Shown: positions 27,542 to 52,888, counted from the first letter of the stretch. The stretch is DNA of 64,000 nucleotides from Vulcanimicrobiota bacterium (GCA_963723515.1 CAVRQT010000003.1:352001-416000); one strand, 5' to 3'. Notes: generated by a model from the letters alone, not told the origin. Numbers and translations: made by a program.

Positions 27542-30166
27542 TTAGGTACACGCGCCGGCGCCTGCGTCGTTCAAGTGCGTCGCTTCAGTTTGAAGCGAGC
27601 CTTCGCTCTTTTCGGAGGCGGCAAGCGCTGCCGCCGACGAGAGGTCTGCGGTGAGCGTCCGATCTGATGCATTAACCTTTTGTATCGCCTCAAGGAAGGC
27701 ACGCGCTGCCGCGGCAGTCGACGCCTCCCGTGGATCCCTTATCCGGCCGATCGCCGTTTCCAGCGCATGTGTCGCCGACCGTTCGTGTTTGAGGTTTAGT
27801 CGGGCGAAGAGCACCAACGCCGCTACGCTGTAGAAGCGCGGAAGCGGCGCCATAAAGGGCCGCGTCTTTGGCTGGTGATATGCCATCGCAAGGGCCGTTG
27901 ATTTCACGCGACCGTGCGCGATTTGCCAACCTGCGTAGGCTTGCTCGAGTTCTCTGAGTGCCATCGAACAGCGCCTGCTAGTGCTCGAGTTGATGACATA
28001 CAGCGCAGGGGTGGTGACCAGCTTCCCGTCCGTTCTTACGATGTGCGGCAGCGACTGATTCAAAAATGGCATCGCCCAGGCCATCGATGTCGCGACGCTG
28101 TTTTGCGTTAGTGCCGCACCCTCTTCCTGGTCGCCCGTAATGACGCTTTTTACTATGCCATATACATCGCCGTTTCGAGCGTCGAAGAGTGGTCCGCCAC
28201 TGTTCCCGAAATCTGTCTCCGAATCGTATTGTATGAAGTCGTCGCCTAGCGCAATCTTACTGACGCTTCCGAGATGCATCACCGCATGAAGCCCTCCCGC
28301 GTACCTTGCGTCGTTGATGAACTTCACCGAGTCGCCTTTTTTCCACCGCGCGCCCCAGCCAGGAACGTCGGAGTACGGAAAACCGGCGATGGCGAGGGGC
28401 TGAGACTCGTGCGGGATCGCCGGCGCAATCACAACCTTCGGCACATTCGGCACATCTGTTTCGAGCATGACGAGATCTGGATTCGACAAATACCGGATCA
28501 CTCGTGCGTTGTGCTTCACGGTGAGATCATTTGCCATTACGCGAGTGTCCTTGGCAAGAATCAGTTGTCGCCTGTCGTTGGGGTCTGGCCTCGCGACGAC
28601 GTGATCGGCGGTCACGAAATAGGAATGCTTATCATCAGACCACACGCAGAACGCGGTTCCCCATCCGACGATAGAGCCATCAGGTTTGGCCGTGGTGATA
28701 AGAGCGAGACTCTTAAAAAGGACATCTGCGATCGCGTTCGGCTTTGCCGTTCGGCTCTCACAGCCGCTGAGTGCGGCATTTAACCGGTGCGCTGCTCCGC
28801 GCACGAAACCTTCGCTTTTTCTTGAAGCGTAGAGGGCTGCGGGCGATGACAGACGAGAGGCGAGTGTCTCGTCCGTTGCGTTGACCTTTCGCACGGCCTC
28901 GATGATCGCTCGCGTCGCCTCGGCAGTCGCGATGTCTTGGCGGCCGGCTATGCGGCGCGCCGCGCCTTCCATGTTACGAGTCGCCGAACTCTCATTCTTG
29001 ACGTCGTGGGCGGCGATGATCGAAAACTTCCGCGCGCTGTAAAAGCGCCGAAGTGAGCCCATAAGCGATCGCGCATATTGCTGATGGGTCGCCGTAGCAA
29101 AGGCCATTGACTTTACGCGACCATGCGCGTTAGCCCAGTTTGCGTATGCTTTAGCGAAGGGTCTAAGCGTTGCGGAACAACGCTTGCTGGTGCTTGAAAC
29201 TTGCAGCGCCGGCGTCGTGACGAGGCTCGGGTCTGTCTTTACAACGTGATGCAGCGCCTGGTTCAACAGCGGCGAAATCCAAACCATGGAGGTCGCAAAG
29301 CTGTCTTCAGTACCGGGGCCTTCCTGAGCGTGGCCGGTGTTGACCGCTTCGACTAAGCCATAAACATCGCCGGTGCGGGCGTCGAATAGCGGTCCCCCGC
29401 TGTTGCCGTGATCGGTCGGCGCGTCGTAGTGTATGTACTCGTCGCCGATGCCAAGCCCGTTTACCTCTCCGGTGTGGATCGACGCGGACAGATCGCCCGG
29501 GTAATTTCCGTTAAGCACGTACTTTAGCGCCTCTTGTTGATCCCATAGCTTGCCCCAGCGCGCGTCGGTGTAGGGGAAGCCGGCGATGGCGATCGGCTGG
29601 GGATCGACCGGGATGCTAAGGCCGACTGTTACTGCCGGCAAGCGTGGAACGTTTATCTTCAAAAGTGCCAGGTCGGGCTCGGGAAACCAGTGCGCTATGA
29701 CCTGTGCCGGATGTCTGACGGCAAGGTCCTTCCATCTCCAGGTCTCGGTGGCGCGGATCAATTGCACTGAGAGTTGAGGATCTGGACGGCCCTTAGGGTC
29801 AAGAAAAAAATCGCCCTTCTTGTTAGTGTCCATTTTATCGATGACATGGTCGTCGGTGACAAAATACGAATCCTTATCATCGGACCACACGCAGAAGCCG
29901 GTTCCCCATCCGTAGACGTTGCCTTCATGTGTCACAGTGATGATCAGCGCGAGGCTCGGACGAATCTTATCCTGATACAAAGTGTCGGTCGTGTTGGCTG
30001 GCATCCCGGTGCGGTCGCCGCAGGCGGAGAGCGCAAAAGATAAGGCTATGGCAACCAACCCGCCTCGAAGCATCATTCGGGTATACCACGTAAGCTTTTT
30101 GATGCTCCGTGCAACCCAGGGCGAATTCGTTCTGCGCGCCGCAGCCACTCGCGGTGCTTCAGTCAT
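27542..30166 (-). CDS. Lipoprotein with two tandem trypsin-like serine protease domains
   Basis: LSAC lipobox; two copies of GWGTxF..VTxDHV..DL..GNSGGPLF, each followed by a helical domain. Confidence 0.85.
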   Translation of the reverse strand: MTEAPRVAAARRTNSPWVARSIKKLTWYTRMMLRGGLVAIALSFALSACGDRTGMPANTTDTLYQDKIRPSLALIITVTHEGNVYGWGTGFCVWSDDKDSYFVTDDHVIDKMDTNKKGDFFLDPKGRPDPQLSVQLIRATETWRWKDLAVRHPAQVIAHWFPEPDLALLKINVPRLPAVTVGLSIPVDPQPIAIAGFPYTDARWGKLWDQQEALKYVLNGNYPGDLSASIHTGEVNGLGIGDEYIHYDAPTDHGNSGGPLFDARTGDVYGLVEAVNTGHAQEGPGTEDSFATSMVWISPLLNQALHHVVKTDPSLVTTPALQVSSTSKRCSATLRPFAKAYANWANAHGRVKSMAFATATHQQYARSLMGSLRRFYSARKFSIIAAHDVKNESSATRNMEGAARRIAGRQDIATAEATRAIIEAVRKVNATDETLASRLSSPAALYASRKSEGFVRGAAHRLNAALSGCESRTAKPNAIADVLFKSLALITTAKPDGSIVGWGTAFCVWSDDKHSYFVTADHVVARPDPNDRRQLILAKDTRVMANDLTVKHNARVIRYLSNPDLVMLETDVPNVPKVVIAPAIPHESQPLAIAGFPYSDVPGWGARWKKGDSVKFINDARYAGGLHAVMHLGSVSKIALGDDFIQYDSETDFGNSGGPLFDARNGDVYGIVKSVITGDQEEGAALTQNSVATSMAWAMPFLNQSLPHIVRTDGKLVTTPALYVINSSTSRRCSMALRELEQAYAGWQIAHGRVKSTALAMAYHQPKTRPFMAPLPRFYSVAALVLFARLNLKHERSATHALETAIGRIRDPREASTAAAARAFLEAIQKVNASDRTLTADLSSAAALAASEKSEGSLQTEATHLNDAGAGACT

Positions 30167-32495: not shown

Positions 32496-33195
32496 GTGGA
32501 AGTCGATAGATGCACCGTGGAAGATAAATCGCTAGGCGATAGCACGGTTACATTTCTCTTTACCGACATCGAGCATTCGACGCAACGATGGGAGCGTGAT
32601 CGAAGTGCGATGATGTATGCGGTGCAACGACACGATGAGCTGATGCGGGGCGCGATCAATGCCAGCGACGGTCACGTTTTTAAGACCGTCGGTGACGCGT
32701 TCTGCGCCGTATTCAAGCGCCCTACAAACGCCGTCGTCGCCGCCATCGAGGCTCAGCGGCGAATTTTCAACGAGGACTTTTCAGCCGTTGGGGGCCTGCG
32801 CGTGCGGATGGCGCTGCACAGCGGGACGGCCGATGAGCGCGATGGCGACTACTTCGGCCCGGCCCTCAACCGAGTCGCGCGGATCGTTTCGATCATCTAT
32901 GGCGGCCAAGTCGTGCTCTCAGAGGTAACCTGCCTTCAGGTGCGCGATGAATTGCCGGGCGATACGACGCTCGTCAACCTGGGTGCGCACCGGCTCAAAG
33001 ATTTGGCTGAGCCCGAGCGTCTGCATCAACTTGTTGACTCCCGATCTGCCGCACGACTTTCCGACACTACGCTCCCTTGAAAAGCTGCCGAACAATCTTC
33101 CGCTGCAACTCACGCACTTCATCGGCCGCGATGCTGAACTAGCCGCGTTAGAAGCACTTTTAGAAGAATCGCGACTTGTGACACTCGCCGGCACC
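32496..33195 (+). pseudogene. Truncated class III adenylate/guanylate cyclase-STAND gene
   Basis: TFLFTDIEHST, FKTVGDAF, DYFGPALNR; frameshift near 33040; homology to 50078-52888 stops at LVTLAG inside the P-loop. Confidence 0.8.
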
Positions 33196-33497: not shown

Positions 33498-36379
33498 CTA
33501 GGGCCAGCCATTTCTGAAGCAAATTCGGCGCAAGCATCCCGATAGTGCAATGATTGCCCCAAAGAGACCAGCTGGTGTACTTGCTAATCGCCTCCCCACC
33601 ATTAAGCAAAGCGATCGCTCCCAGTCGTGCGGATCAACCGAATAGATTGCTAGCGTTCCGTACTGATGCTGTTCCAGGTATCCCGCTACGAGGTACCGGC
33701 CGTCCGCGCTAAAGCTTAAGCTTCGGAAGTGGTGATAGTTGCCGTTGAAGTGGGGTGGTTGTGGCAGCGGCGGCCCTACTCGATGTGCCCGTTTGAAAAT
33801 CGGCAAGCTGAATACCACCGTTTTCCAAACTCTGGAACGCATAGAGTCGAGAATTTGGCGATAAAGCGATTGGACCGCTCGCGGAAATTTCCAACCCAGG
33901 AACGGGATTCAAAGATGGCAAGGAGTATACGCGGAGTCCGGTTCTTGTGCTCTCAGGTTGTACAAAAAGCGTAACCCTCGTCTTTAGAGAACCCGGTTCC
34001 GTCGAAAAACCTACCGAATGCGCGTACCATCTCGGAACAATGTAAATAAGTAACCGGGCCCAACGGGCGCAGTGTCTTCTGTAGGCAGCCAAAAGCAATC
34101 GCCCACGCGAGCTCAGATAATCGGCTGTATCACAATACGCTGAAAAGCTACGGACCCTTCCGCCGCCTTCTTTAAGCGATTCTATATCGTCTGGCGCGAA
34201 AAGACGGTGCCGCACGATCGTGACCCATGCGTCGATGGGTCCCCATGCCGCCTGACAGATCCTCTACGTAATTGCCATCCTTGTCTAGCGAAACCGGCGG
34301 TAGCTGGAAAGAGTGCACTACCCTGGGGCCTGCGCCGATATCCATTAGTTCGACTCTACCGCTCGTGAAATAGATCCTCACCGCATGCACGCCGTCCCCG
34401 ACGTCCTTCAGTCTTACCGAACCGTTCGCGTACGTATCTCCTTCGAGTTGTGTGCGAAAGCGATTCAGTTGATACGCGCGCAGTCGGTTCCGTCCTTGCT
34501 GGATAAGTGTATCTCCACTGAACGCGTAGCTGTCGCCCCACGGCCCACCGTCAAGCACACCAATCATGGGCGAATGAATCTCCGAAAGAGATCGAAGAGC
34601 TGAGCCCCGTGAATGGCTCGACCGTGGCCGATGGTGACTCATTAGTGACGAATTCTTTTACATGATCATCGTAGACTCGGGCGCAAAGAAAACCCGGACC
34701 TGGTAAGAGTACTCCGGTCCCACAAGGCGTCGCTTTCGTTCATCGAAGAGGCTGGGTTAACCGCCCAGCATCAATCGTTCCTCGCGGCCACGAGTAGTTT
34801 AACAAAGTCACGGCGTGCCCGCAGGAAGCGCCCGGGACAGTCTGGACGATCTTGGTTTCCCAAGCAGCAGTTCGTATTAAACCGTCGTCACACCACGAAA
34901 TTTCATTCTTGGTCGAGTTAAATGCTATTCCCTGAGAACAATCCTTGATACAGTCCGCCTTCTTTATCGGAATATCCCGAAGCTGGCGCAACGAGGGCGT
35001 CGCAAAGATGGTCAGCTCAGCAGCGCCGGTGACCTCGTCCTGTTCAAAGCCCCGAGCAACGGTTAAAATACTGAGGACAGCAACGAATCTTCCGTCTGGA
35101 GAAACCGCTAGTCCGCAGGAAGCCCCCGCACCTGTGCTGCAGCAAGTGCCTTAGCGGAGCCAACGCGATATAACGCTGTAAGTCGCCGACTACTTGATGC
35201 GACAGCAAGTAGAGACGCGCTACTGCACGCTAGAGCCCTTACGTGCGCGCCGCGAAGACTCGACATGACGACAAACCGCGATCGGTGCACGATGCTGTAG
35301 ATTGTAACGCCCGACGAATCCGAGGCTGCGAATAGAGGGTTGCGCGGAAAACCACACAGGTGCGTCGCCAGCCGATGTACGGGCGTCCGCGACATGACAC
35401 TGAGATCGTTGGAGTCCAAAGACAATGAAATCTTTCGGCTGCTTACCGTCGGGCGTGACTGTTTCTATAGCGAGCAGCCGCCCATAATCCGAAAAAGCCG
35501 CCAATTCCCAATCCGGCACGGCGACACTGCGCAGAGCGTCAAGAGTGCTCAATTGCGCAAGCATGGCGCCTTCAGTTTCTGGCGTTTCCGCCGTTTTGTA
35601 TGCCTCTGTAGCGAGGATCGCGCCGACGACGCTTCCTTTCCGCTGCATACTCATTGACGCGGTTGCATTTGCCCGTTGGACAACGAGTCAACGATAGGCC
35701 ACCGTCGTCGGCCACACAACCAACCCAATGAAGACGATAGCGAGGACTGCCCGCAATATGAGGACACGGCGACGGCGAATCCGATCTCGCACCTTGAGCT
35801 CATCGAACCGGATGCCCGCGATCGCTGCGACGATTCGTAATCGTACGTCTCTTGCAGGCTCACCATGCGGTCGCGCATCGATGACGAGTGGTTCAGGAAG
35901 CCTTGATCCAGCGTCGTCGATCAGCAACGCGGCTGGAAGCGAGTCGCCCAGTTCACCGGCGACGAGCACGGCGAAAATGCGATCGCTGCCGTTCTTGTTA
36001 CGGAATTGGCGGATCTCCTGATTGACCCAATTCGAAGCAGCTGCGTCCGGCGAACACAGAACGACGAGTGTGCGCGAATCTTCAAGAGCAGCGCGTAGAG
36101 AAGCGCCAAGGTCGGCGGAACCTGAGAGCTCATCGCGGTCGCGAAAGATCGGAATAGGCGCTTGGGGAGCGGCTCTGCTGGTTCGCCACCCAATTTTGCT
36201 GGCAGTCGAAACGTCTCGATGGCACGAGCGAGTCGTTCCGCGGTTCGTTGCTCGTGGTGACTATAACTGAGGAAAGCCCAGTAGCGGGGAGCGCGTCCTA
36301 CAGAGGTTTGCAAAAAGACACCTGACCGATGTTCCTTGGGCGCGTCGCGGCTGTTAGGCGCTTCCCCGTCCTCTATCAC
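33498..36379 (-). CDS. TIR domain + TM + WD40 beta-propeller protein (multiple frameshifts)
   Basis: AFLSYSH, (P)IFRDRDEL, VLCSPDAAASNWVNQEI, RRRR-TM, LATEAY linker, SLSFSADGRYL-type repeats, DWERSLCLMVGRRL tail. Confidence 0.75.
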
Positions 36380-36851: not shown

Positions 36852-38260
36852 TTAACTCACCGCAACCGGCTGTGTTGCGGTTTTGAAGTCCTCAATGAAG
36901 CGATCCAGTTCTTGCATGTCGATATCAGCCGGTGTGGCATCCTTTATCTCCATTAAGTTGCTTAGCGTCGTTGCGCTTTCGAACGGCTCAATCTTTAACG
37001 ATTAGCTTTAGCAGGCCAGCCCCCGCGCGTTGCCAGTCGTTCGCGAGTACTGCAAGTTCAATACCTGTTGCGAGTAGCCAGTAATCGGGCGTGTCGCCGA
37101 GGCGAGCAACGGCGAAGGTAACCGCTGGCACGATCTTTTTCTTCATCGCGATGGATTCTGGAGAATTTCGAATCGCGAGTAGCGTGGCGAAATTTACGCC
37201 GGGATAGTAGTCGCGCGGATCCGCCATGAAACCGCGCTGGTACGAAGCGATGGCTTCATCGAGAAACGCCATAGCTTGAAACGGGTTCTTGCCTTTTGTT
37301 TCCTTATAACGGTCTTTCCAAATGCGTCCTAAAAGTCCGCAGGTCTCGGGGTCATCCCCGTGATCTTTTACTATCGCTTCTAGCAGTCGTTGCGCTTTGT
37401 CGCGATCACCGGGTTGATTGCGTCGGTTGAGGACAAGCGCATATTGTTGGCGCAATGTGACCGAGGTGTCCATGAGCCACTGCGGCAGGCGTTCGGCTAA
37501 CAACACAGCCGCGTCCCAAGCTTGCAGATCTCGGTAGCTGAGCAACACATCGACAAATAGTTCGGCGTTGTTTTGCTGCGGAGCCCCCAGTTCAGTTTCA
37601 ATTGCCTTGATGAGCTCGAGGGCATGGTCGCTGTCTTTGCGAGCCGCTTGCAGGCGTATGCGCACACCGTCGACGTAACGGCTTCGGTCACGAAAGTTTT
37701 CCGTAACTTCGTGCGGCAAGTGGATTCCCGGAAACTCTGGAAGAAGCTGGAACAGCGGGCTGTCGCTCGATTCGGGATTCGCCAACGCGTATTCAACTCT
37801 GTCTTGAAGTGTTTGCTGCAATTGTGCAGCGCTCTCGGCGCTTAATTTTCCGTTGTCTAATTGATAGGGGATCGAGCTGATCATGGATATGTCGAAGGGG
37901 AGTATTCCTTGATTCCCCCAGATGATGATCGTGGACCGCGGCCGCGCGGCGTGCCGAATTCCCAGCTCGTAGAAGACGTTCGGGTTTGGGACCGTGACAT
38001 CGACGATCGTAACATCAGCTAGCAGCAAGCGCTCGAACATCGGCACATGAATAATCCCGCCACCGCGCTCCTCGTCCGCGCGGATGCATTCCAGCTTAAG
38101 GCCATCGACAGCCGGCTTAATTCCACGCGTGTAAATATCGTCGAAATCGATTTCCAACGTGCGCGTTGCATCTGGCTTCTTGCCGAAGGGCATCGCCACG
38201 AAGACCAAAGGCGCGCACGGGTTCGGCGCTTGCGGCGAAATGCGTTGCTTATGGGTAGTC
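36852..38260 (-). CDS. NDT/DRHyd-like nucleotide hydrolase + TPR-S (DUF4071/MAP3K TRAF-binding-like) protein (frameshift near 36995)
   Basis: FVAMPFG, RADEE, NPNVFYELGIRHA, LSYRDLQAWD, QQYALVLNRR, LLGRIWKD, YYPGVN, DYW; C-terminus continues EPFESATTLSNL in another frame; start approximate. Confidence 0.82.
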
Positions 38261-38366
38261 ACGGGATCGACTCCGTTCAGTTGTACCGCAATGCGGTACG
38301 GTCTTAGTAGCGCTTTATCGGAAGCGGGGGATGTCCTCGTCGTTGGGCTACTAAATATACTTTCGT

Positions 38367-40024
38367 ATGGCCGCACGTGCACCGGTGATGGAAACGGGGC
38401 CGTTCCCGCTTGTGGTCGGCGTGACCGGACACCGCGACCTGCGAGAAGCGGATCTCCCTCCGCTGCGTGAGGCGGTGTGCGCGGTGCTCAATACGTACCG
38501 GACAAATCTACCGCGCACGGCAATTACGATTCTATCGTCGCTCGCTGACGGGGCGGATCGTTTGGTCGCGCGCGTAGCGCTTGAGCGGGGATGCAGCCTT
38601 GCGGCTGCGCTGCCGATGCCGCGCGAGGAATTTAAAACGACGCTTAAAGACGACGCTGCCCGCGCCGAGTTTGATTGGTTGCTCGCCCAATGTACGGCGC
38701 AGTTTGTAGCACCACCGCTGAACCGCGATATTGATTGGCGGCAGCGTCGGTCGATCTTCGCTACGCGAATTGCGCCGCGTACATAGTCATGCGATCCGCC
38801 GAACAAATCGCACTGTGGGACGGAAGGCGCACCGATGGAATCGCCGGCACAGCTGCCAGCGTGCGGTTCATGCTCGAAGGAGTTCCCGAGCCGATTGTCT
38901 CTCGGCGCAGCGACTTAGATCCCGAACCGATTGGCCCAATTATTCAAATCGTTACACCGCGAGAGGCTAATCCTTCGCCCGACGGTGTGCCTTACAGCAT
39001 CAAGCGCCTGTATCCGCCGTTCCTCATTTCGCAAGTTGATAACGAGGATGTCTTTGCGGATCTACTTCACCACCTTGATAACTATAATAACGACGCGATC
39101 GAATGCGCGCACGTGCGCAAGATGCGCCACTTTTCTCTTGAAGAGCTGCAAAACATCACCGAGGTGCTCTCGGGCTACTACCAGGGCTGGACGCAACGCG
39201 TACTGCTCTCGGCGTTGGCATTTTGTCTTGGCAACCGTCTTTTTCGACCTATATGTTACGGGGTTGCTTCAATCGGCATTGGTGTTACTGAGCTATTTCG
39301 GCTTAACGCTTGGCGCCGTTATCGTTTATGCGATTTCTCAACGGCGCGGCTATCAAGATCGCTATCAAGATTATCGTTCACTCGGAGAGGCCTTGCGCGT
39401 GGCCGCTTTTTGGCATCGAGCTGGCGTCGCCGCATCGCCCGCTGACGTGGTTGCGCACCTTCAGCGGGGAGAAGTGAGTTGGCTGCCGACTGCGATTCGG
39501 GCGCTCGTTGAACCATGGCTCCCAAATATTCCGAGGCCTTCAGTGAACGCGGCCGGGTTGCGAGATGTCTACGAGCAATCGGTCGTTGACCAAGCGGCTT
39601 GGTATGCTCGGCGAATCAAGGAAAAGCGACAGTTTAGCGCGCACGCCGCCGTTATAGCCTTCTAGCAGTCGCCGCGGCCGAAGCGATCATTCCGCTGCAG
39701 CTGCTGCCGGGGATGCATGGATGGCGCGAGGGGATATTTCTGGTAAGCGGCGTTTGCGCGATACTCGCCGCACTCATTAGCTACTATGCCGAAAAGCGGG
39801 GGTGGCTCGAGGAAATGAAGGAGTACATGCGGGTCGGCGCGCTGTTCGGTCGTGCACGCGAGCAACTGTCAACGCTCTTGTCTGAGCCTTCCTTAAGCGA
39901 AGCGACACTACTACGGATCCGCCGCATGCTCGAAGAACTCGGCCGCGAAGCTCTGCGCGAAAATATAGCGTGGCGCAATTTGCATCGCCAGCGTCCGATT
40001 AAGTTACCGCATATGCACGTATAA
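38367..40024 (+). CDS. SLOG domain + tandem SLATT-like 2TM modules (frameshifted)
   Basis: VGVTGHRD, SSLADGAD, ALWDG..GGTA-like; YQDYRSLGEALR, DQAAWY, LGREALRENIAW. Confidence 0.75.
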
Positions 40025-40774
40025 TTTGCGGTGGAATGCAGGTGATCGAGTATCTATACTCACGGAATAAAGCATGAATAAGAGAGGGGCTGGGATCGTA
40101 ATGGCGGATAAATCGGACCGCGCGATCGTAAATTCTCGGAACGTAATTCTATTCTCTTTGGCTTGGTTAATCGCTCTGCTCGCGTTCGGCGCGCAAACAT
40201 CGCTTCCGGCGACCGCTAGCGCCATACGCCTCGATGACGTGGTCGATATGACGCTCGCAGGTGGCTTGCGGCTTTCGCGCTGGGGTCTTTGCGCTCGAGG
40301 ACTTTTCGTTGGCGTCGTAGCAGCGAGCGACGAAAATTCATTCCTGGGCGTCATCTATATTAAGCGAAGCGCTGTAAGAATCATAACGGTGCGCGGGCGC
40401 GAACGGAGCAGCGATCGCTCTGATTGCGCGGCGTACCAATCCGTGTCCGACCTCGTCAGGGGCGAAACCTACCGTTGCCGTTGGAAATAGCCGACCGGAA
40501 AGGTAACGTGTATGTGGGCGCGACTCCTTTGCGCCTTAACTCCGGAACTTTTGATGTCGCCGGCGCGTGCCAATACCGCCGCGAACTTGGTGGACCAACG
40601 TGTCGGGAGAAGATTAGCGCTCATCGTCCCGTCATTTTGCGGTCCGAGGACATCATTCTCATTACGGGCTACAGGAGTAAATGAAATCCGTTATTGATAT
40701 GTGGCTTTGTATTTATGCCGAGGCACTGTTAAAGCAGCGCAAGGCTTGTGCAGCGTAGGCGGAACGCATCGCAT

Positions 40775-41331
40775 CTATTGGTTTCGTTTTAGGCTGGCTC
40801 TTTTCAACCAAAGGTAAAGCGACGACGCGATCATCACGAGTCCCGTGAGGAGCCCGTACCCGGTCAGGCCGAGCAATAGCGTCGCAGGCATCGGTAGATC
40901 GCCAGTCCAGAGGCGTACGAGTAACGTCACCATGCCCGCAAGTACGGAAACGCTGCCAACCGTCGTGATTGCCGCGGAGCCGTCAGTGTTCGCACACCGT
41001 CCAGCGATCATTTCAAGCAGCCCTTTGCATATGAACCACCACATTAATGCAACTAAGTAACTGCCTGGCAGCCAGCATCAGCGCGGCAGACGTCAGGGTG
41101 GACAAAACCGAGTAGCAGCAACACATTTCTCGCGCGACCTCGTGACACGTACGCGGTCCAAGCTGAAAAGGCAAATTCCGTAAGTGCATACGCACAGCAC
41201 AGCAGCGGAAGAACAAAAATGAGGCCAACGAGCGCTGGCAAGATTGCGGCCGAAAACGCCAGCGCGAAGATGCTGCGAGGTAGAAGGAATGCCTGCCAAG
41301 TGCTGAACCATTTAGGCTGCAGAAGGCCCAA
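40775..41331 (-). CDS. Probable multi-TM membrane protein (frameshifted)
   Basis: Three overlapping hydrophobic ORF pieces co-oriented after the TIR-MCE gene. Confidence 0.4.
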
Positions 41332-41360
41332 GAGGCTAACTGGCCTGTTGCTTTATTTGC

Positions 41361-42194
41361 TTACAGTCCCGTGCGGCTCTGCGCAAAGTACGGCAATGTG
41401 ATGTGGCAGCTGGCGGCTGATGAACTTCCGTAGAGAGGTTGTCCGATGTGAACTATCGGGGAGTTAAGCACACCATCGTGTGCAATTGTAAATCGTGCGT
41501 CTTCGGGAATGTCGATGTCAGGCTTAAGCTGCATGATCACCTCCACTCATCGTTTAACTTGTCTCGGCATGACGTATGCCGGCTCTGTGGGAGCAGAATA
41601 ACGTTACCAACTTGGCCCACCTCTACGCCATTGTATTGAACTGGCGTATCTGCGCTGACGCTTCCCGCATCTGGAAACGAGACGCCGATCGCGTACATGC
41701 CTACTCTTGCGTTGAAATCAATGAGCGAGCGAAACGCAAAGAACAAAGCGACGAGAACCAGCGGCGTGGCCCACAATGCAATGCGCCGCGTCATCCTGCG
41801 TCGCCGCGCCAGACGTTGGACGGTATCGCGAACCTCGGCGGCCACGTTCCCCTGCGGCATAAGCACTGAAAAAGGGCGTAACGAGCTAGGAAGCTCGTCA
41901 AACGGCACAGGTTGTAACATCACCGGAATAATGCGCCCTTGAGGCTTGCGCCATCGCTCTTCGGCAAAACGGAGTTCGGTTCGGGAAGCTCCCTCGTTGC
42001 ACTGACTCGGGGGTGACTAAGAAGATCATCATGTCGCTCTTATAGAGCGATTCTCTGATCCACTTGTTGAAATCGTCGCCCGCTATAATGTTGTCTTTGG
42101 CGAAGAGCACGTCATTCCCGGCGGACTTGAGCGTTGCTGCAATCGTTTCGGCATCTCGCTGATGTGCGTTCGGATAGGACAGGAAGATTCGCAT
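41361..42194 (-). CDS. TIR domain + TM + MCE/MlaD domain fusion (frameshifts near 41984 and 41548)
   Basis: IFLSY..IFLVTPESV..(P)RTELRFA..RIIPV; RRRR-TM; SFPDAGSVSADTPVQYNGVEVGQVGNV..VEVIMQL..IPEDARFTI..GVL. Confidence 0.75.
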
Positions 42195-42315
42195 CGTACC
42201 TCAATCCGCAGATTCTGGCCGCAAGGGTTTTGGAGGACTTACATGAGCAATCGCCGCGTCGCTTTCGTCGCGGTCGTCATCGGCTTCCTTGCTCTTTCAA
42301 TGTTCAATTTGCTGG

Positions 42316-44245
42316 TCACGCGCGCGGTCGTTTCGGCCCGACAACCCTTATGCAAACTCTCCTGGTTCTATCTTGGGTGCTAGTTTCCGCGACGAACCTC
42401 GAGCAGGTTAAAGCTAACGTTTTGGCGCGTGGGATACTCGCGGAAGCGGTGCTGGTTATTGTCGCACTGCTATATTGCTGCTGCTGGCCCTTCGAAGAAA
42501 TGTAAGGGACAGAAGTGAGATGGTGTGCCAGTTCAGCGTCGCTTTGCGTGTCAGCAGGCAAATTTCTGCAGACGGCGTCGCCAAAAAATGTCGCCTTTCT
42601 TAGTGCGGAACACTCAGGGGAGAATTCTCGTTGGCCGAGGAGCCAGTCCGCATGTTCGACTAACGCTTCACGGGCAAGGTTCCGAATGATGTCCGTCTCC
42701 GCTTGGCTGCGCGCCGTTACGCCATCGAGCAGGCGCGCGTATTGTGCGAACAGCAGGTACATGCGCTCGTAACGTTTGGCGTTTTTCGCAAATCCTCTCT
42801 TGGCGGCGTAGTTGGAAAGGAAGAGCGCAATTAGGCCGCCGATGGCGAGCGGTGCGGTGGCGTTGGGATCTTGCAACGAAGTCCCCGCGTGCGCCAAATG
42901 CCAACGCTGCATGTCAGCTGAAATCACGGTTGGCCATAGCCAGCCGGTCCGGGCTTCCACGTCGTGCGCATGCTGCGGCAAGATGGTGCCCAGCGTCCCC
43001 GCTAAAGCAACCAGCGCACCGACAGCGGCGCCCGCGACGTTGAGAAAACGGGCGTGCCCTGCTTGCGTTTTTGTTGCATTTTGGTAGTAGTCTCGTTGGC
43101 CAGTCACCCACTCTCGGGCTTCTCTGGAACAATCCGCTGTAGACTGAGGAGTACTTTGAGGTGCGGTTACCTCGATGCTTCGCAATGCCCTCCGGATCCA
43201 TTGCAGTTCGCTTTTCTGCATCGAGAGATAAGCTGTCTGAGCGAAATCAGACGGCAGCCCGGCGCACGCTGTTGCATACGTTGTGCGTAAGGCTTCGCTT
43301 AACGCGCGGTAATCTTGATAGCGGTTCTCGTAGTCGAACCGCCGTGCGAACGCAAATGCACCGTAGGCGAGGACGAGCGTCGCGATTTTCACGTCGTTGA
43401 CAAATGGAATATTGCTTAAGAATTGTGCCGCCGCGGCAAAGAATGCGCAAATATATACCAGCAAGACCAAAGCCAACGTGCGAGACTGGAGTTGTCCAGC
43501 GGCACGGCCCAACCGCTCTTGCATCGATCCGCTTTGCCGGGCGATGTCGAGATTGCATTTTCGCAAGTGGCGTAGCGCGCTGTTAAAGTCTCGCGCGGCG
43601 GTTTTGTCGCCTTCGAATCGCGGCGGGAATAGGCGCCTGATCGTAAAAGCGTCAGGCAGCGATTGCCCCGTTTCGGATGGCGTAAGGATTTCAAACGTCG
43701 GCGCGATATCGGGCTGTGACGGGCGGCGAGGTCGGCATCAACGCCGGTGGCCTCGCCCGTTTTTCGCATCGTAACGACGTCTCGCCGGCGCCGCCGTCCA
43801 ACGTGGCGCCGTCCCAAAAGATTGCGGCGATATGGCTAAAAGTAGCTAAGCACAGTGCGACCGCGTTGTCGCTCTGCGAAGGGTTTTCGGAGGTTCCGAC
43901 CACGATTGTTGTGCTACTTTGCTGCAACGCGGCACGAAAACGTGCCAGATGATCGGGCGAGAAGCGTTGTTCGTAGTCTGCTTGGGGCGCGGGCAAGAGT
44001 GCGATGACAGGAACGCGGGCCGCAAAGGCGCGCTCCGCGGCAATGATTTCCGCGCCCGGGCAAAGTGCACTCATGACGGCAAGCGGCAGACCTTTGTGCG
44101 CGAAAACGAGCTGATCTAAAAGAACGCCGAACGCGCTTGAAAGCTTCGGTTCGTCGGAGGGCGCGATCTGGGTGTATCCGGTTAGCCCGATGAGCAGTGG
44201 TATGCCCGGCGCGCTCCGCGCTTCGCTTGTTTCAAGCTGACCCAT
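42316..44245 (-). CDS. Second SLOG + SLATT-like protein (frameshifted; true 3' end probably near 42600)
   Basis: IGLTGYT, SALCPGAE, FWDG; YQDYRALSEALR, WVTGQRDYY, REALVEHADW. Confidence 0.72.
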
Positions 44246-44629
44246 ATGGGCCCGTTCTAGCGGGTCGCCGCAACGCCTCGACAAATGACGTTTCTGCCCA
44301 GGCCCCGCCAGCGGTCTGACCTAATGTGTCGCAGCTCTGCGGCATTGAATATAGGTATTGTTTCGCCTTTGCGAACCAGACGACGACGTCTCAAATTCAA
44401 GCGGTGCACGACCTCTTCTCGCGCTGGCATTATGTCCACAATGCGCGCGACGGTGGCGGACGGTCACAAGCGGGAACAATTCTCGCTAACACGCCATCGA
44501 CTGTTTTCGTTGTACTGCATCGTTTCGTACCGCGCAATGATCGGGTGCACGCAGAGGGTTGAGCCCTGTGGAATCCGAACAACCTAGGATGAAACTCGCA
44601 GTGCGTTCGCACCGCGGGCCATTTGGCTT

Positions 44630-46141
44630 ATGGAGCCGGTAAGAGTGCCACGGTTATTCCTTTCGTATGCCCGAAAAGATGATGCACCCTTTGAAGAGCG
44701 GCGCGGCAGTGGGTTCGTTACTGTGTTGCTTAAGCATCTCGAAGAGGCACTTGACGATCTTGGGCCGCCGATTCCGGAAATCTTCCGCGATATGCGCGAG
44801 ATCGATGAGCCAGCCAGTTTGACCCGGTGCTACGTGAGGAATTAGCCCGAGCCGACTATTTGCTGGTTGTGCTCTCAAACAACTGGTTGCATCGACCATG
44901 GTGCCGGGACGAGTTAGAGTTGTTTGCATCCAGATGGCATCAGGGCGACCGTGCGCTCAAGGAACGCATCATCGTGATCGGCCGGCGCTTCATCGATCCT
45001 GAAAAGCGACCCGCGCTTCTCCAGGGACAAAGCGGATATCTTTTTTGCGCCTTCGACCGCACGACGAACGACTATGTGGAGTTCTACAAGCGCGGAGAGG
45101 TTTGTGATAAGCGATATCACGACGAAATAGAAGCTTGCCAAAAAACTTCAAAAGCTCGCGCAGACTGAGGCGCCGCTAGAGAGCGGCGCTCGCACCAAAC
45201 CAACGCGCAAAGTTTTCGTTTCAAAGCCAGCGGGCGATATGGAAGCTGCCTATGCCCGCGTTGTAAACGAGCTCGAAGCGCAGGTTTGTCTCGGAGGTGA
45301 TTCCGCCGCGTGATGCCGAGATTCCAAAGCAGCGAGCGGAAGCGTGGATTGACAGCGCGTTGGCCAAAGCGGAAATTGCAATTCATTTAATCGGAGAGAA
45401 ACCGGGATGGACGCCGGAGAGCGGGACCCCCATTGTCTGCACTTCTTCAACTTGCCCGCTCAGCGACACATGCGCAAAAATCCGATCTCCGCCGCATCAT
45501 ATGGGCGCCGAAGAAAGTCACCGCGGACGGCAACGCAGACACGCATGGTGATTTGCGCGAGCCGGTCTCGGTGGTGTCGCGCTTTTGTGAGAAATTGGAC
45601 ACTGACACCATCGATGGCAGCGAGCTTGCCAAGTTTCTTGAGTTCGTTACGCTGTATCTTCGGGAGCACCGCCCCGCCCCGGAATCCGGTACCGATGTGG
45701 CGCTCGCTGCGAACTCACGAGTGTACCTGCGTTACTGGGATGAAGACACCGATTATGCGCTGGAACTCAAACGAGCGCTCGAGCAGCGTCAAATTGCTAC
45801 CGAGATGTCGGTACTCGACGGCAACCAACCGGCTTGAGCTTGAAGAGTTTAACCGCCGTTTGCTCGATCAATCGGATGCGGCGCTTGTTTGTTGGGCGAA
45901 TGTCGACGAGCTGCGCGTACGCAGCCAAATGATGCAATGGCGCGACACCCGCAAGGTACGTGCCTTGGTTGCCGGTCCGCCCGACCGTAACCCAAAGAAA
46001 GTGCTCGTCGCGAGCCCTCCAAAGAACGACGTCGACGTTGTGCTCGATTTGCGCAATAGCGCTAAGGTCACGCCGGACGCACTTGACCCGCTGATCAAGA
46101 AAACGCGAACGCCGCACAACGCCTCCGCAACCAAACCATGA
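44630..46141 (+). CDS. TIR-domain protein with further Rossmann-like segments (multiple frameshifts)
   Basis: LFLSYARKD, IFRD, LVVLSNNWLHRPWCRDEL, IAIHLIGE; overlaps the nSTAND1 start (ATGA). Confidence 0.7.
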
Positions 46142-48413
46142 CCGTGGCGTTCAGCCCGCAGCTTTCAGCGGAGCGTCCGTTTCCGGGGCTGCGCGCCTTC
46201 ACATTTGAGGACCGCGAATTCTTTTTCGGACGGGAACAACAGATCTTCGCGCTTTATCGGTTATTAGACTTAAGCCGTTTTATCGCTGTCGTCGGCGGGT
46301 CTGGCAGCGGCAAATCATCACTGGTGCGCGCGGGCCTTGAGCCATTAGTGGAACAAGAGAGTGAGGCCGATGGCGGAAGGCCATGGATGCTTGCGACCAT
46401 GCATCCGGGAGAAGCGCCCATTTCGTCGTTGAGTGATGCCTTGGCATCACTACATGGAAAAATAGCAGGCGCTGCCGACACGGCGGACCACGCGATCCGT
46501 CGCAGTCGGATCGAGCATGCGCTTCGGCGCTCCAGCAGGGGCTTATTGCAACTGATTCGCGATACCGCTGCTTTCGAGAAAAGCGCTTACTGCTCGTGGT
46601 CGATCAGTTTGAGGAGCTCTTCCGCTATGCGTCACCTGGATTGAGAGCCAAGAATTCGATTTCTGAGTTCTCATGGCGCGACGAAGCGACCCAGTTCGTG
46701 CATCTCTTGCTCGAGGCGTCCGCGGACCGGGAGACATGGGGCTACCGTGCTCATCACCATGCGTTCCGATTTTATTGGAGACTGCGCACTCTATTATCGG
46801 CTCCCTGAAGCCGTCAGCGAAGCTCAGTTCCTCGTCCCATCGTTGACCCGCGGCCAGCGCGAAGACGTCATTCGCCAACCCATTGCCAAGGCCGGCGCTG
46901 AGATTGAACCAAGTTTAGTCCAAACATTGCTAAACGAGGCAGGTACCGAGATCGATCAGCTTCCCGTTCTGCAGCATTGCCTTGCGCGTCTGTGGGATCG
47001 AGCGAAATCTCGTGCCACCGAGCAGCGTCCGGCGCTGAACATTTCCGATTATGAAACCGTGGGACGCCTCCAAGACGCCCTTTCGCAACATGCAAACGAG
47101 ATTATGGCGTCACTGCCGGGCCTCGAGCAGGTCGTCGAGTCAGTGTTCCGCGCGCTGAGTGAGGTCGACAAAGAGGGGCGCGCCACGCGTAGAGCCATCC
47201 CGTTTGAGCAGTTGCTCGCGGAAACAGGCGCGTCTCGCGCGGATTTGATTCGAGTGCTCGATCGCTTTCGTGCTGACGATTGTTCATTTATCGTCCCGTC
47301 AACCTCAGCCGTACCCGTGCTGCATGATGCGACGCAAATCGATGTGGGACACGAAGCATTGCTACGCCGGTGGGACCGCATGACCGGTGATGACACGGCA
47401 AGGGGATGGCTTTCGGCCGAAGATGATGATGCCGGCTGGTACCGCATGTTGCTGCGATTTGCTAAAGGCGCTTAATGGGCGAGCCGAATCGTGTAACGTT
47501 GCCCGCTCAGCAAGTAGAAGCATGGTGGGCGCGTTGGAATGCACGCCCGCGTACCAGCGCTTGGGCGGATCGCTATGGCGGCGGTTTCGAGCGCGTCCAA
47601 GAACTGTTGAAAAACAGCCGGCAAGCGGTCGAAGAGCAACGCAGACGCGCACGTACCGCTCGAGCGCGGCGTATGCTAGTTGTCGTAGCAGCGATGTTCG
47701 TCGTGATTGTGCTTGCGCTCGGCTCCTGGCGTGTTCTTTACGTAGCGGACCAGACGCACAAGGAAGCAGTCGACGTGGCGGACACTGAGAATAACGCTCA
47801 GGTTTCCATGCAGTTCAGCGGGGTTCTGCGCTCGGTCGTACGCATTCGTGCAGGTTCCCAAGTTGGGACGGGAGTCGTGGTCGGACAACGAGCTTCCTCG
47901 TCATACATTTTAACCGCCGCTCACGTGATTGGTGCTGAGAGAAGTGTGCGAGTGTTTTTGCACGCTTTGTATGGTCAGGGCGACGGGATTGCAGCGCGCG
48001 TTATAAAGGCGAGCCCCCAAACCGATTTGGCCGTGCTTTCCATCCGGCGGACGAACGTGCCGGCGATTGCGCTTGGCCGGGTGAGCGAAGGGCTGCTGGT
48101 CTACGTGGTAGGTTTTCCGCAGTCTGAACGCGCCTTTGAGATGACAGGTATGCACCGTTCAACGACTACAACGCTTGGTGTGGTTGAGATCAATCACACC
48201 ACGGGGCGACTTAACGTTGAGGAGGCCTACAGCGGGCAGGCGCCGTTTCTGTACGGGGGCAATAGCGAAGGCCTCATCCTGGACCGTTATACATTGGGCC
48301 TTGTTGGAATCATCCATCGCGCGGTCAGTCGCGCGGGTAACGGCTACTCCTTTGCTCCCGTACCCATCAACACCATAACGCAATTCTTGCTACCGATTTT
48401 ACGCTCGTCTTAG
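46138..48413 (+). CDS. nSTAND1 NTPase + TM + trypsin-like domain (breaks near 46580, 46740 and 47472)
   Basis: PFPGLRAF..FFGRE, GGSGSGKSSLVRAG, VDQFEELF, TMRSDF, QLPVLQH, HEALLRRW, WADRY; TM; GTG..LTAAHV..DLAVL..GNSEG. Confidence 0.78.
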
Positions 48414-50077: not shown

Positions 50078-52888
50078 GTGGGCGATTTTACAGTTCGGCG
50101 CGAAGGCAGGCCAGTGGAAACTCCGCTGCGGACGCGGCGTCCCTCGAAGCGTCGCGCGTCGAAACTGCCAAGCGGGACGATCACTTTTCTCTTCAGCGAC
50201 ATCGAAGGCAGCACGCACCTTTGGGAAGACGACCATGCCGTTATGCAAAGCGCCGTACGCCGCCACGACGTCGTCATGAGGTCGGCGATCACGGCGAACG
50301 AGGGGTGCGTTTTCAAGACCGTCGGCGATGCGTTCTGTGCCGCCTTCGCCCTGCCGGGTGATGCCGTTGCCGCAGCGCTCGAAGCGCAACGCGCGCTTGC
50401 GCTCGAAGGGTCCGGCGATCAGATCCGTGTTCGCATGGCCCTCCACACGGGAACTGCAGACGAACGAGACGGAGACTACTTCGGCCCAACTCTGAATCGC
50501 GTCGCCCGATTGCTCGCAATCGGTCATGGCGGGCAGGTGCTCATCTCAGCAGTGACAAGCGAACTCATGCAAGATAAGATGCCACCGAAGGTAACGCTCG
50601 AGGACCTGGGCGCGCATCGCTTGCGAGATCTCGCAAGACCCGAACACGTCTACGAACTGCGCGCTCCTGATTTGCCGAATGGTTTTCCTCCGCTTCGTTC
50701 CCTCGATGCGCTACCCAACAATCTGCCGTTGCAACTTACGTCGTTCGTGGCACGAGAAAAAGAAGTGGACGAAATCACCGCGCTGCTAAGCAAACACCGG
50801 CTGGTAACGTTGGTCGGCGCCGGCGGAATCGGCAAGACGCGTATCTCCTTGCGAGTCGCAGCCAATATGCTCGACACAAGCGCCGACGGGGTGTGGTTTG
50901 TCGAGCTCGCACCGCTCACCGATCCCACGCTGGTGCCGAGCACGATCGCAAAGGCACTCCACGTCACCTTGCCGGCTGAGGGCGATGTGCTCGAGGCGTT
51001 GGCGCGCTCGCTGAAGGTCAAGCGCTTGCTTATCGTCCTTGATAACTGCGAGCATTTGCTAGGTGCTGCCGCGGCTGCGGCCTCAATGATCCTGCGGAAC
51101 TGCCCTAAAGTAACAATCTTGGCCTCAAGCCGCCAAGGACTGGCAATCACCGGGGAAGCCGTGTATCGCATGCCGTCGTTGGCGATGCCGAACGTCAAGG
51201 AATCTGCCACGCTTCGCGCGCACGAGGCGACGACCTATGGCGCGATCGCGCTTTTCGTTGCTCGCGCCGAAGCCGCCGATGCGCGCTTTAGGTTCACGGA
51301 TGAAAACGCACCAATTGTTGCGGATATTTGCCGTCGTCTCGATGGTATCGCCTTCGCAATCGAACTGGCAGCAGCGAGGGTGGGAGTTCTTAATCCGCAT
51401 GAGCTGCGAGCGCGCCTTGACCAACGTTTTCGTGTACTGACAGGGGGCGCGCGCGACGCGTTACCGCGACGGCAAACGCTTCGTGCACTCATCGATTGGA
51501 GTTATGATCTGCTCGACGAGCGCGAGCGCGCGCTCTTTCGCCGAATCGGTATCTTTGTGGACGGCTTTACCCTTATCGGTGGGCTGGCAGTTTCCGGTGG
51601 GGAAGTCGATGAGCTTGAACTCTTCGACGTACTCGCCTCGCTGGTGGACAAGTCGCTTGTCATAGCTGAAGGGGCGCACGATTCAACGCGCTATCGACTG
51701 CTCGAGTCGACGCGCGCGTACGCTTGCGAAAAACTCGATGAATCTGGCGAGCGCGCTACTATGGCAGAAAGGCACTTTGCCTACGTGCATGCTCTTTTTT
51801 CAGGAGCGGCGGCGTCCTTTGAAGGGAGCCCACGCGAAGACACCGTGTTTGCCTTGGCAACCGAGCTTGAGGACCTGCGCGTCGCGCTCGACTGGGCCGC
51901 AACGCAAGACCCTTCCCGAGGCGCGGACCTGCTTACGAAGACCCGACTGTTCCCCTACCTTGGACTCTATCGCGAGGGCATCGAACGTGCAGAGCGGTTT
52001 GCAACGCTGCTCGAAGGAAACAATGCAAATCTGCTTGCGCGGCTTTGGACGTATGCCTCGTTTTGTGCACAACGACACGTCAATAGGAAACGCGCGTTTG
52101 CCGCGGCAGAGTCCGCGCTCTCATACGCTCGCTCATCTGGCAATGCTACCGTACTTGCCGACGCGTTAGTCATGTACGGAAGCACCGCCGCCTCGTGGGG
52201 GCGCTTTTCGGAGGCTGAAGCGGCGTTCATTAAGGCCGAGGCGGTAGAAGCGCCTACGTTACGTCGGGAGCTCGACCTTCTAAGGTTCCGCGCACTGCTC
52301 ACCTATTTCCTGAGCAGTGATCCCCCTGCTGCGCGGCAAGCATTCGAGCACCTCCGCTCGTTGCACAAGTCACTTGGGAACATGCGCGGCGAATCAGCCG
52401 CTACGATCAGCCTAGCTGAGTTGGAGCACGCGCGCGGGGAAACCAGGCGCGCAATAGCCTTGGCGTCGGAAGCGCTATCCATGGCGCAGCGTCTTCAAGA
52501 CACCGCGTCCCAAGTGCATGTCAATATGAACTTGACGGCCTACCTTCTTGCCGTCGATGATCATGCGGCTGCGCGGATCGCGGGACACAGCGCGCTTCAG
52601 CTTTTTGCAAAGAGCGACCCGTACCACACCCACGTGGTCCTAACATTGGAACACCTTGCTCTGGCTTGTGCCCTCAAGGGCGATTTCGAGCGCGCGGCGC
52701 GGTTGGAAGGCTACGCCGACAATGCTTTGCGAGCGATTGGCGCCGAGCGCGAACGCACTGAGACCATAACGCACGAGCGTCTCGCGGTGCTGCTCAAGGA
52801 GCATTTTAGCGCAGTCGAACTGCGCGCGCTTCTCGCGGCGGGCGCCGCCCTGATGCCAGGTGAAGCCATCGCCGAAGGGCTCGCCTAG
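50078..52888 (+). CDS. Class III adenylate/guanylate cyclase + STAND ATPase + TPR
   Basis: TFLFSDIEGST, GDAF, GAGGIGKT, LDNCEHL, LDGIAFAIELAAAR, TPR-like tail. Confidence 0.92.
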   Translation: MGDFTVRREGRPVETPLRTRRPSKRRASKLPSGTITFLFSDIEGSTHLWEDDHAVMQSAVRRHDVVMRSAITANEGCVFKTVGDAFCAAFALPGDAVAAALEAQRALALEGSGDQIRVRMALHTGTADERDGDYFGPTLNRVARLLAIGHGGQVLISAVTSELMQDKMPPKVTLEDLGAHRLRDLARPEHVYELRAPDLPNGFPPLRSLDALPNNLPLQLTSFVAREKEVDEITALLSKHRLVTLVGAGGIGKTRISLRVAANMLDTSADGVWFVELAPLTDPTLVPSTIAKALHVTLPAEGDVLEALARSLKVKRLLIVLDNCEHLLGAAAAAASMILRNCPKVTILASSRQGLAITGEAVYRMPSLAMPNVKESATLRAHEATTYGAIALFVARAEAADARFRFTDENAPIVADICRRLDGIAFAIELAAARVGVLNPHELRARLDQRFRVLTGGARDALPRRQTLRALIDWSYDLLDERERALFRRIGIFVDGFTLIGGLAVSGGEVDELELFDVLASLVDKSLVIAEGAHDSTRYRLLESTRAYACEKLDESGERATMAERHFAYVHALFSGAAASFEGSPREDTVFALATELEDLRVALDWAATQDPSRGADLLTKTRLFPYLGLYREGIERAERFATLLEGNNANLLARLWTYASFCAQRHVNRKRAFAAAESALSYARSSGNATVLADALVMYGSTAASWGRFSEAEAAFIKAEAVEAPTLRRELDLLRFRALLTYFLSSDPPAARQAFEHLRSLHKSLGNMRGESAATISLAELEHARGETRRAIALASEALSMAQRLQDTASQVHVNMNLTAYLLAVDDHAAARIAGHSALQLFAKSDPYHTHVVLTLEHLALACALKGDFERAARLEGYADNALRAIGAERERTETITHERLAVLLKEHFSAVELRALLAAGAALMPGEAIAEGLA

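Follow-up and report, generated by a model that had tools for sequence, protein, structure and literature searches.

The window analysed here is a stretch of 64,000 nucleotides from the genome of a Vulcanimicrobiota bacterium (GCA_963723515.1, CAVRQT010000003.1:352001-416000), and all positions are counted from its first letter. The minus strand from 42194 to 41361 was translated in 3 frames, and was found to contain a gene for a protein with a TIR domain, one membrane helix and an MCE domain, although this architecture is present only as a broken gene. The gene is divided into 3 pieces, here called A, B and C. Piece A (41985..42194, minus strand) consists of 70 amino acids and represents the N-terminal half of the TIR domain. 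It begins with an ATG codon at 42194-42192, which in our reading of the sequence is preceded at a distance of 4 nucleotides by the Shine-Dalgarno-like motif GAGG (42199..42202, minus strand). The Pfam family TIR_2 (PF13676) matched piece A with an E-value of 2.3e-12 and a score of 47.9 bits (cut-off 28) over positions 1 to 64 of the 122 positions in the profile, and a scan of the whole genome with TIR_2 also recovered piece A (49 bits).

Piece B was identified as an open frame of 159 codons without a stop codon (42016-41540, minus strand) in the three-frame translation. The part of piece B with homology to known proteins, as recognized with phmmer, Pfam, and the PDB, extends over 41585..41983 on the minus strand, and contains the C-terminal half of the TIR domain, the helix, and the N-terminal half of the MCE domain. 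Within this single frame, the sequence RTELRFAEERW is followed by the basic stretch RRRR (41806-41795, minus strand), by one membrane helix predicted from hydropathy at 41776-41720 on the minus strand (residues 81 to 99 of piece B), and by the start of the MCE domain at residue 108, so that the helix lies directly ahead of the MCE domain. The Pfam family MlaD (PF02470) matched piece B at 41695-41573 on the minus strand with an E-value of 7.5e-8 and 33 bits (cut-off 25.1), although only over positions 3 to 43 of the 81 in the profile; in the MlaD scan of the genome, piece B scored 34.2 bits. Piece C (41361..41546, minus strand) was assigned with an MCE profile of relatives, described below, to the second half of the MCE domain, followed by a tail of about 25 residues and a stop codon. 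Its 61 amino acids are encoded at 41546-41364, the stop codon is located at 41363-41361, and the frame is the same as that of piece A. In all 3 pieces, the GC content at the codon positions of the claimed frames followed the pattern of intact genes.

An earlier note on this DNA had proposed that the N-terminal part is a TIR domain and the C-terminal part an MlaD domain, and both assignments were supported by scores above the Pfam cut-offs. It had further assigned the RRRR stretch, the helix, and the beginning of the MCE domain to one common frame, with the first break inside the TIR domain and the second inside the MCE domain. This was confirmed by the three-frame translation and the profiles, and the junction between the TIR and MCE parts is located inside the open frame of piece B and is uninterrupted. 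The predicted topology, with the TIR domain inside, a positively charged stretch, one helix, and the MCE domain outside, also agreed with that proposed in the note.

The first break is located at a run of 3 C residues (GGG on the plus strand) at 41983..41985, where the frame on the minus strand advances by one base, from that of 42194 to that of 42193. The TIR domain as a whole is therefore not contained in any single open frame. The run lies 2 residues ahead of the conserved glutamate of a TEL motif (codon 41977-41975). A repair of the frame would take either the removal of one base or the addition of 2 bases. In the alignment with 149 members of the protein family described below, the break falls on a single residue of the family, for which the consensus is G.YTLTEL compared to GSF-X-RTEL in the window, and a net loss of 2 nucleotides fits best because the family has one residue more at this site. 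The position of the break was thus the one given in the earlier note, whereas the addition of one base, which it had suggested as the repair, results in SFPEP... rather than in RTEL.

The second break consists of a stretch of 38 nucleotides (41547..41584, minus strand), which corresponds to 6 nucleotides in the MCE genes of nine relatives. It extends from LLPQ, at the end of the homologous part of piece B, to VEVIM, at the start of piece C, and closes with a TGA that is in frame with piece C. At this site the frame returns, so that the 2 frame shifts cancel each other and pieces A and C share one frame. As judged from the alignment, the stretch represents either an insertion of about 32 nucleotides or a long loop combined with the loss of one nucleotide near 41547-41549. 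A second shift near 41548 had been foreseen, and piece C indeed completes the MCE domain, but the difference of 38 to 6 nucleotides does not correspond to a plain shift of one base. A palindrome of 15 nucleotides, GGCATACGTCATGCC, was observed inside the stretch at 41580-41566 on the minus strand. The possibility that the stretch is a copy of a mobile repeat was ruled out, as it is unrepeated in the genome: no second copy was found elsewhere. With its 2 frame breaks, the gene in its present form cannot encode a TIR-helix-MCE protein.

Directly after the broken gene, we observed 2 helix-rich open reading frames of 92 and 89 amino acids (window 40775-41331, minus strand). No Pfam or PADLOC family was identified in either of them (40775-41044 and 41053-41331), nor was a relative of the frame at 40775-41044, which encodes 89 amino acids, detected in the 40 genomes searched. 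The 2 frames may together represent one broken membrane protein. In a scan for promoters and terminators in the region 40600-44500, the counts were not above those obtained with shuffled sequences.

The origin of the MCE half was examined with a profile built from nine MCE proteins of about 530 amino acids in related genomes, including three from the unpublished genomes G020, G036, and G009. Piece B matched positions 13 to 71 of this profile and piece C positions 74 to 96, so that the 2 pieces are directly colinear. When G020, G036, and G009 were left out, the profile of the remaining six sequences matched piece B at positions 13 to 71 (E-value 1.8e-10) and piece C at positions 74 to 110 (E-value 7.3e-5, with 52 pieces searched). 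In the alignment, DIPEDARFTIA of piece C corresponds to DIPxxSKFLIQA in the relatives. A read-through of the MCE half, in which the break was bridged with an X, scored 49.8 bits, and 45.9 bits if only published sequences were used. Searched against the PDB, piece B lined up with residues 18 to 87 of LetB/YebT and with residues 13 to 77 of MlaD, which in both cases represent the anchor helix and the first MCE domain. Piece C alone matched no Pfam family at E-values up to 1, and PDB entries only at chance level.

The MCE half is colinear with the N-terminus of the MCE proteins in the relatives, from the MTR start through the anchor helix to the end of the MCE domain, with an identity of about 33% to 43% both to these proteins and to the genome's own MCE protein. 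It stops about 125 residues in, and the C-terminal part of about 400 amino acids that is present in the relatives is missing. The MCE half is a diverged copy of roughly the N-terminal 125 residues of the lineage's own MCE protein of about 530 amino acids. Only 2 MlaD-type matches were obtained in the genome, namely the broken gene and the housekeeping MCE gene. The only MlaE match in the genome (C3:677138) is a neighbour of the housekeeping MCE gene, at a distance of about 285 kb from the broken gene, and no genes for MlaE or MlaF were identified beside the broken gene among the open reading frames scanned at 27.5-52.9 kb.

To characterize the TIR half, piece B was searched with a full HMMER (phmmer) scan against 1.84 billion representative sequences at E-values up to 0.001. 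The scan resulted in 1129 matches, of which the best 149, the window's own protein aside, were examined (P0002-P0150). All of these best 149 of the 1129 proteins matched residues 1 to about 95 of piece B with their own residues from about 61 to 155, and nearly all contained an N-terminal TIR_2 domain (Pfam searches of 56 and 93 proteins). Exactly one helix was predicted in 105 of the best 149 by a hydropathy scan, with a median start at residue 141. A recognizable domain after the helix was identified in about one in eight of the same 149 of 1129 proteins. These outer domains included FGE-sulfatase (5 proteins), Amidase_2 (2 proteins), and PAN (2 proteins), as well as a CarboxypepD_reg-like domain in 3 proteins, with scores below the cut-off. 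Single cases within the best 149 of 1129 were Big_6-like, CHU_C/FlgD_ig, CBM_20, PG_binding_1, lectin, and a combination of CHAT and LysM. Neither Pfam nor the local MCE profile detected an MCE or MlaD domain in any of the 149 best of the 1129 matches.

In the alignment of the 149 family members, the window sequence has kept the conserved residue in 33 of the 42 columns with at least 70% conservation, including the glutamate of the TEL motif, which is present in piece B and for which the column is more than 90% conserved. We take this glutamate to be the catalytic-type residue of the TIR half. The TIR half belongs to a large family, as defined by sequence similarity, in which a TIR_2 domain precedes a basic stretch, a single helix at about residue 140, and a variable outer domain. 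The subfamily of piece B was not found in 40 relatives. The nearest match in a genome was L011, a soluble TIR protein in a metagenome-assembled genome of the Vicinamibacterales, which matched in the TIR part only, with 57% identity over residues 13 to 70, and which contains neither a helix nor an MCE domain.

Several of the outer domains in the family (Amidase_2, LysM, PG_binding_1, lectin, CBM_20, PAN, and FGE-sulfatase) are typical binders of carbohydrates or peptidoglycan, and the family may represent bacterial surface-sensing TIR receptors. The earlier note had described the broken gene as a possible receptor. A receptor-like plan is indeed suggested by the family of proteins with a TIR domain, one helix, and variable outer domains, but with 2 breaks the gene does not encode a working receptor. 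No description of the family was found in those parts of the literature that were accessible to us, and the supplements of a recent preprint on Thoeris systems (10.64898/2025.12.03.692087) may include membrane TIR proteins. We consider this large and apparently undescribed family to be a better lead than the broken gene itself.

No intact TIR-helix-MCE protein was found among the representative sequences, in the contigs of metagenomes and genomes, or with a word index. The scan of metagenomes identified no close relative of piece B, and the scan of genome contigs with piece B recovered only L011 with its TIR-only match. The word-index search at near lengths returned only the window's own protein of 107 amino acids; at longer lengths it returned nothing, which by the nature of this search method is weak evidence. 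The ESM Atlas contained no usable match to piece B, and no fusion of TIR with MlaD ("mammalian cell entry") was encountered in the accessible parts of the literature. The TIR-MCE fusion thus appears so far to be a unique combination of domains, represented by one broken gene in one genome. As these searches returned no intact counterpart, nothing indicates that the fusion was ever maintained by selection.

The gene located upstream of the broken gene is likewise divided into 2 pieces. Piece 1 (43691..44284, minus strand) aligns with the N-terminal 200 amino acids or so of the proteins in the relatives and corresponds to a SLOG-fold domain, whereas piece 2 (42316..43566, minus strand), which is located in another frame, was assigned by Pfam and by alignment to a SLATT/DUF4231 membrane part. 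The 2 pieces form one open reading frame of about 530 to 590 amino acids in all of the 11 loci examined in the relatives. DUF4231 was identified in the C-terminal part of 10 of the 12 members of the alignment, and SLATT_3 in 9 of them. The fold of the N-terminal domain was predicted for the protein of a relative with a pLDDT of 84.8, and the predicted fold matched YpsA, DprA, ShosA, LOG proteins, and the SLOG domain of ThsA. The upstream neighbour was thereby identified as a gene for a SLOG-SLATT protein. SLOG-SLATT genes were found in 90 of the 301 genomes of the phylum, a tally that includes the unpublished genomes G193 and G257.

In the window copy, invariant motifs of the SLOG-SLATT protein have been replaced (GHRD by GYTQ and GGTA by AGET), and the open reading frame overruns the stop codon of the relatives by about 100 codons. 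The distance to the start of the TIR gene is about 120 nucleotides from the end of the open reading frame and about 400 nucleotides from the end of the homology, while the same gap in the relatives ranges from a small overlap to 113 nucleotides. The longer gap makes the operon linkage weaker here than in the relatives. The gene downstream of SLOG-SLATT in the 11 loci of the relatives encodes a TIR_2 domain in 3 cases and a patatin in 2 cases; in the remaining loci no Pfam family was assigned to it. Two of the 3 TIR genes are in turn followed by a giant nSTAND1-WD40 gene. The 2 patatin-like phospholipase genes after SLOG-SLATT are located at L016:337-1467 and L014:2355-3521. Since a patatin is found there in 2 relatives, the slot downstream of SLOG-SLATT seems to be exchangeable. 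The SLOG-SLATT gene, which in this lineage is paired with varying TIR or patatin genes, provides a second lead.

Both genes are located in an island with at least 5 frame-broken genes between 38 and 48 kb. A second SLOG-SLATT copy was identified at 38394-40006 on the plus strand, in four pieces that alternate between 2 frames and are matched by the intact protein of a relative; it appears to be a heavily decayed paralogue. At 44651-46126 on the plus strand, 3 frame pieces represent a homologue of a double-TIR protein of about 506 amino acids in the relatives. The gene for this protein is located after SLOG-SLATT and before the nSTAND1-WD40 giant in the relatives, whereas here it is divergent from SLOG-SLATT. 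The gene for an nSTAND1 NTPase (46138-47475, plus strand) consists of 2 open reading frames in the same frame. For about 100 nucleotides at approximately 46640-46740, however, the motif WRDEA.QFV.LLLEA is obtained as in the relatives only in another frame, which suggests a second pair of cancelling frame shifts. All 3 TIR_2 matches in the genome are located in the island.

It was also noted that the island is framed by a number of conflict-system-type genes that are apparently intact. These include genes for a double trypsin protein of 874 amino acids (27542-30166, minus strand), a small cyclase (32496-33080, plus strand), a Trypsin_2 protein after the nSTAND1 gene (47475-48413, plus strand), and a cyclase-STAND-TPR protein of 936 amino acids (50078-52888, plus strand). 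An intact protein of 464 amino acids, which carries MAP3K_TRAF_bd/TPR-S domains and in which PADLOC indicated a TIR-like stretch at the N-terminus, is encoded at 36988-38382 on the minus strand, and a short, separate TIR_2 open reading frame at 35921-36379 on the minus strand adjoins this gene.

Open reading frames of at least 200 amino acids cover a fraction of 0.24 to 0.43 of the island compared to a median of 0.82 for the genome, and the long open reading frames that adjoin the island, of 874, 464, and 936 amino acids, are intact. The breaks could in principle be indel errors of the assembly, introduced for example by a consensus of mixed strains in a variable island, in which case the gene would be intact in the organism. 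Such an explanation would be consistent with the location of the first break within a homopolymer run, with 2 shifts that cancel so that pieces A and C share a frame, with the well-kept residues of the TIR domain, and with the preserved coding pattern of the GC content. The assembly of the genome into 4 long contigs, which suggests long reads, also fits with it. We nevertheless consider an intact gene in the organism to be unlikely. The long open reading frames are normal both beside the island and elsewhere in the genome, and a difference of 38 for 6 nucleotides at the second break is no slip in a homopolymer. Furthermore, the SLOG-SLATT neighbour has lost invariant residues by substitution. 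Substitutions at these positions cannot be indel errors, and this favours real pseudogenes. Our estimate is therefore that the breaks are rather likely to be real, and the island to show defence modules that are decaying in a small genome.

On balance, and with modest confidence, the best reading is that the broken gene is what is left of a gene for a TIR-MCE protein with a single pass through the inner membrane, and that this gene together with the SLOG-SLATT gene represents a pseudogenised Thoeris-like pair. The N-terminal TIR_2 domain is placed in the cytoplasm, followed by the basic stretch and one helix, and the MCE domain in the periplasm. This plan, both breaks, the family of each half, and the identity and decay of the neighbour were shown by the analysis above, whereas we infer the signalling link, the trigger, and the past working of the fusion. 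In the pair, the protein would have played the part of ThsB. An envelope cue, sensed through or near the outer domain, would cluster the TIR domains, and the clustered domains would turn NAD+ into a signal derived from ADP-ribose. The SLOG domain of the neighbour might then bind the signal and open a SLATT membrane pore, and the opening of the pore would stop the infected cell. If the fusion ever worked, an immune TIR domain would have been wired to the cell envelope with a piece of the cell's own lipid-transport machinery, and TIR signalling would have been extended from the cytoplasm to the periplasm.

A serious rival, although we judge it to be unlikely, is that the gene is a chimera that was never functional, and that a deletion or rearrangement in the decaying island placed a TIR gene, with or without the helix, in front of the 5' end of a stray MCE gene copy. 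None of the searches returned a second example of the fusion, and broken genes abound in its surroundings. The MCE part begins exactly at the MTR start of the MCE gene, as would be expected from an accidental read-through; it ends shortly behind the domain and is without the long C-terminal part of the relatives. However, the MCE copy has diverged to about 33% to 43% identity and yet keeps the conserved positions with a single frame break, which points to a long divergence under constraint. Moreover, the plan of the family is reproduced exactly, with RRRR after the TIR domain and then a single helix ahead of an outer domain.

The earlier note had proposed a possible lipid-sensing receptor, in which MCE assembly or the binding of lipids could switch on the cytoplasmic TIR domain. 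On this model the protein would be self-contained, and its TIR NADase would deplete NAD+ by itself. Both domain assignments and the topology were confirmed, and the TEL glutamate is kept. TIR enzymes become active upon self-association, and hexamer formation and lipid binding are established for MCE proteins. The rings of MCE proteins such as MlaD and LetB are thought to be constitutive hexamers, so that a simple switch by MCE assembly fits poorly with a TIR domain that is kept off until triggered. The gene is also broken, and support for such a receptor does not extend beyond the names of the domains. The absence of an MlaE or MlaF partner nearby, with the only MlaE of the genome about 285 kb off, speaks against it, and the adjacent SLOG-SLATT effector and the TIR genes beside the orthologues of this effector favour a signalling role. 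We therefore regard the self-contained receptor as improbable; the context points instead to a signalling TIR domain with a SLOG-SLATT effector.

Slightly less probable still, although compatible with a SLOG-SLATT effector, is an integrated decoy. According to this idea, the anchor helix and ring domain of the cell's own MCE lipid-transport subunit would have been copied and wired to the TIR domain. The copy would imitate the housekeeping MlaE/MCE machine or be built into it, so that a phage or a toxin gripping or disturbing this machine would bring the TIR domains together and thereby trigger the SLOG-SLATT pore. If true, the gene would represent a bacterial counterpart of the integrated decoys in plant NLR proteins, caught after its loss, and the wider family of proteins with a TIR domain, a helix, and an outer domain would be bacterial surface pattern receptors, given that the outer domains look as if they bind glycans or peptidoglycan. 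Programmed recoding, in which the full protein would be produced by ribosomal frameshifting, accounts for the shifts of opposite sign that restore the original frame, but is hardly credible, since no slippery heptamer was seen by eye at either break, there is no conserved counterpart, and similar damage is seen in other genes of the island.

Compared to known systems, the remnant of the TIR-MCE gene is similar to animal Toll-like receptors in that a cytoplasmic TIR domain is connected to an outer domain through one membrane helix. The order of the domains is reversed, however, with the TIR domain at the N-terminus in the window gene, which also had no match to leucine-rich repeats in Pfam and in which the TIR domain is of the bacterial TIR_2 type with an enzyme-type glutamate. 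There is no evidence for a common descent of the whole receptor with animal Toll-like receptors. With the MCE proteins MlaD, LetB/YebT, PqiB, and Mce1A-F, the gene shares an N-terminal anchor helix directly before the MCE beta-barrel domain. In contrast to these proteins, a cytoplasmic TIR domain is located ahead of the helix, the domain contains an insertion of 14 residues and a frame break, and no genes for MlaE or MlaF are located alongside. The lineage's own MCE protein differs furthermore by its C-terminal part of about 400 amino acids. The members of the TIR_2-one helix family have the same N-terminal TIR motifs, the basic stretch, and a helix near residue 141, whereas the MCE domain is found in the window gene only, as compared to the best 149 of the 1129 family matches.

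A further comparison is with the Thoeris systems. SLATT genes have been noted beside genes for TIR effectors (Kaur et al. 2020, PMC7159879), and the recent preprint on these systems (10.64898/2025.12.03.692087) describes the combination of a TIR protein with a SLATT effector as type VII Thoeris, with signalling through cADPR, whereas effectors that sense through SLOG are assigned there to types I and III. The matches of piece A to the ThsB-type models in PADLOC were weak (E-values 0.0039 and 0.0067), and PADLOC had no match for the SLOG-SLATT neighbour. The window differs from Thoeris in that the TIR protein is predicted to be anchored in the membrane with a periplasmic MCE domain, and in that SLOG and SLATT are joined in one chain in the effector. 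Both window genes are broken, and the likeness is drawn from their sequences. As in Thoeris, however, a TIR_2 gene adjoins a gene in which a SLOG fold is fused with SLATT membrane helices, and the orthologues of this putative effector gene are followed by TIR genes in 3 of the 11 loci of the relatives.
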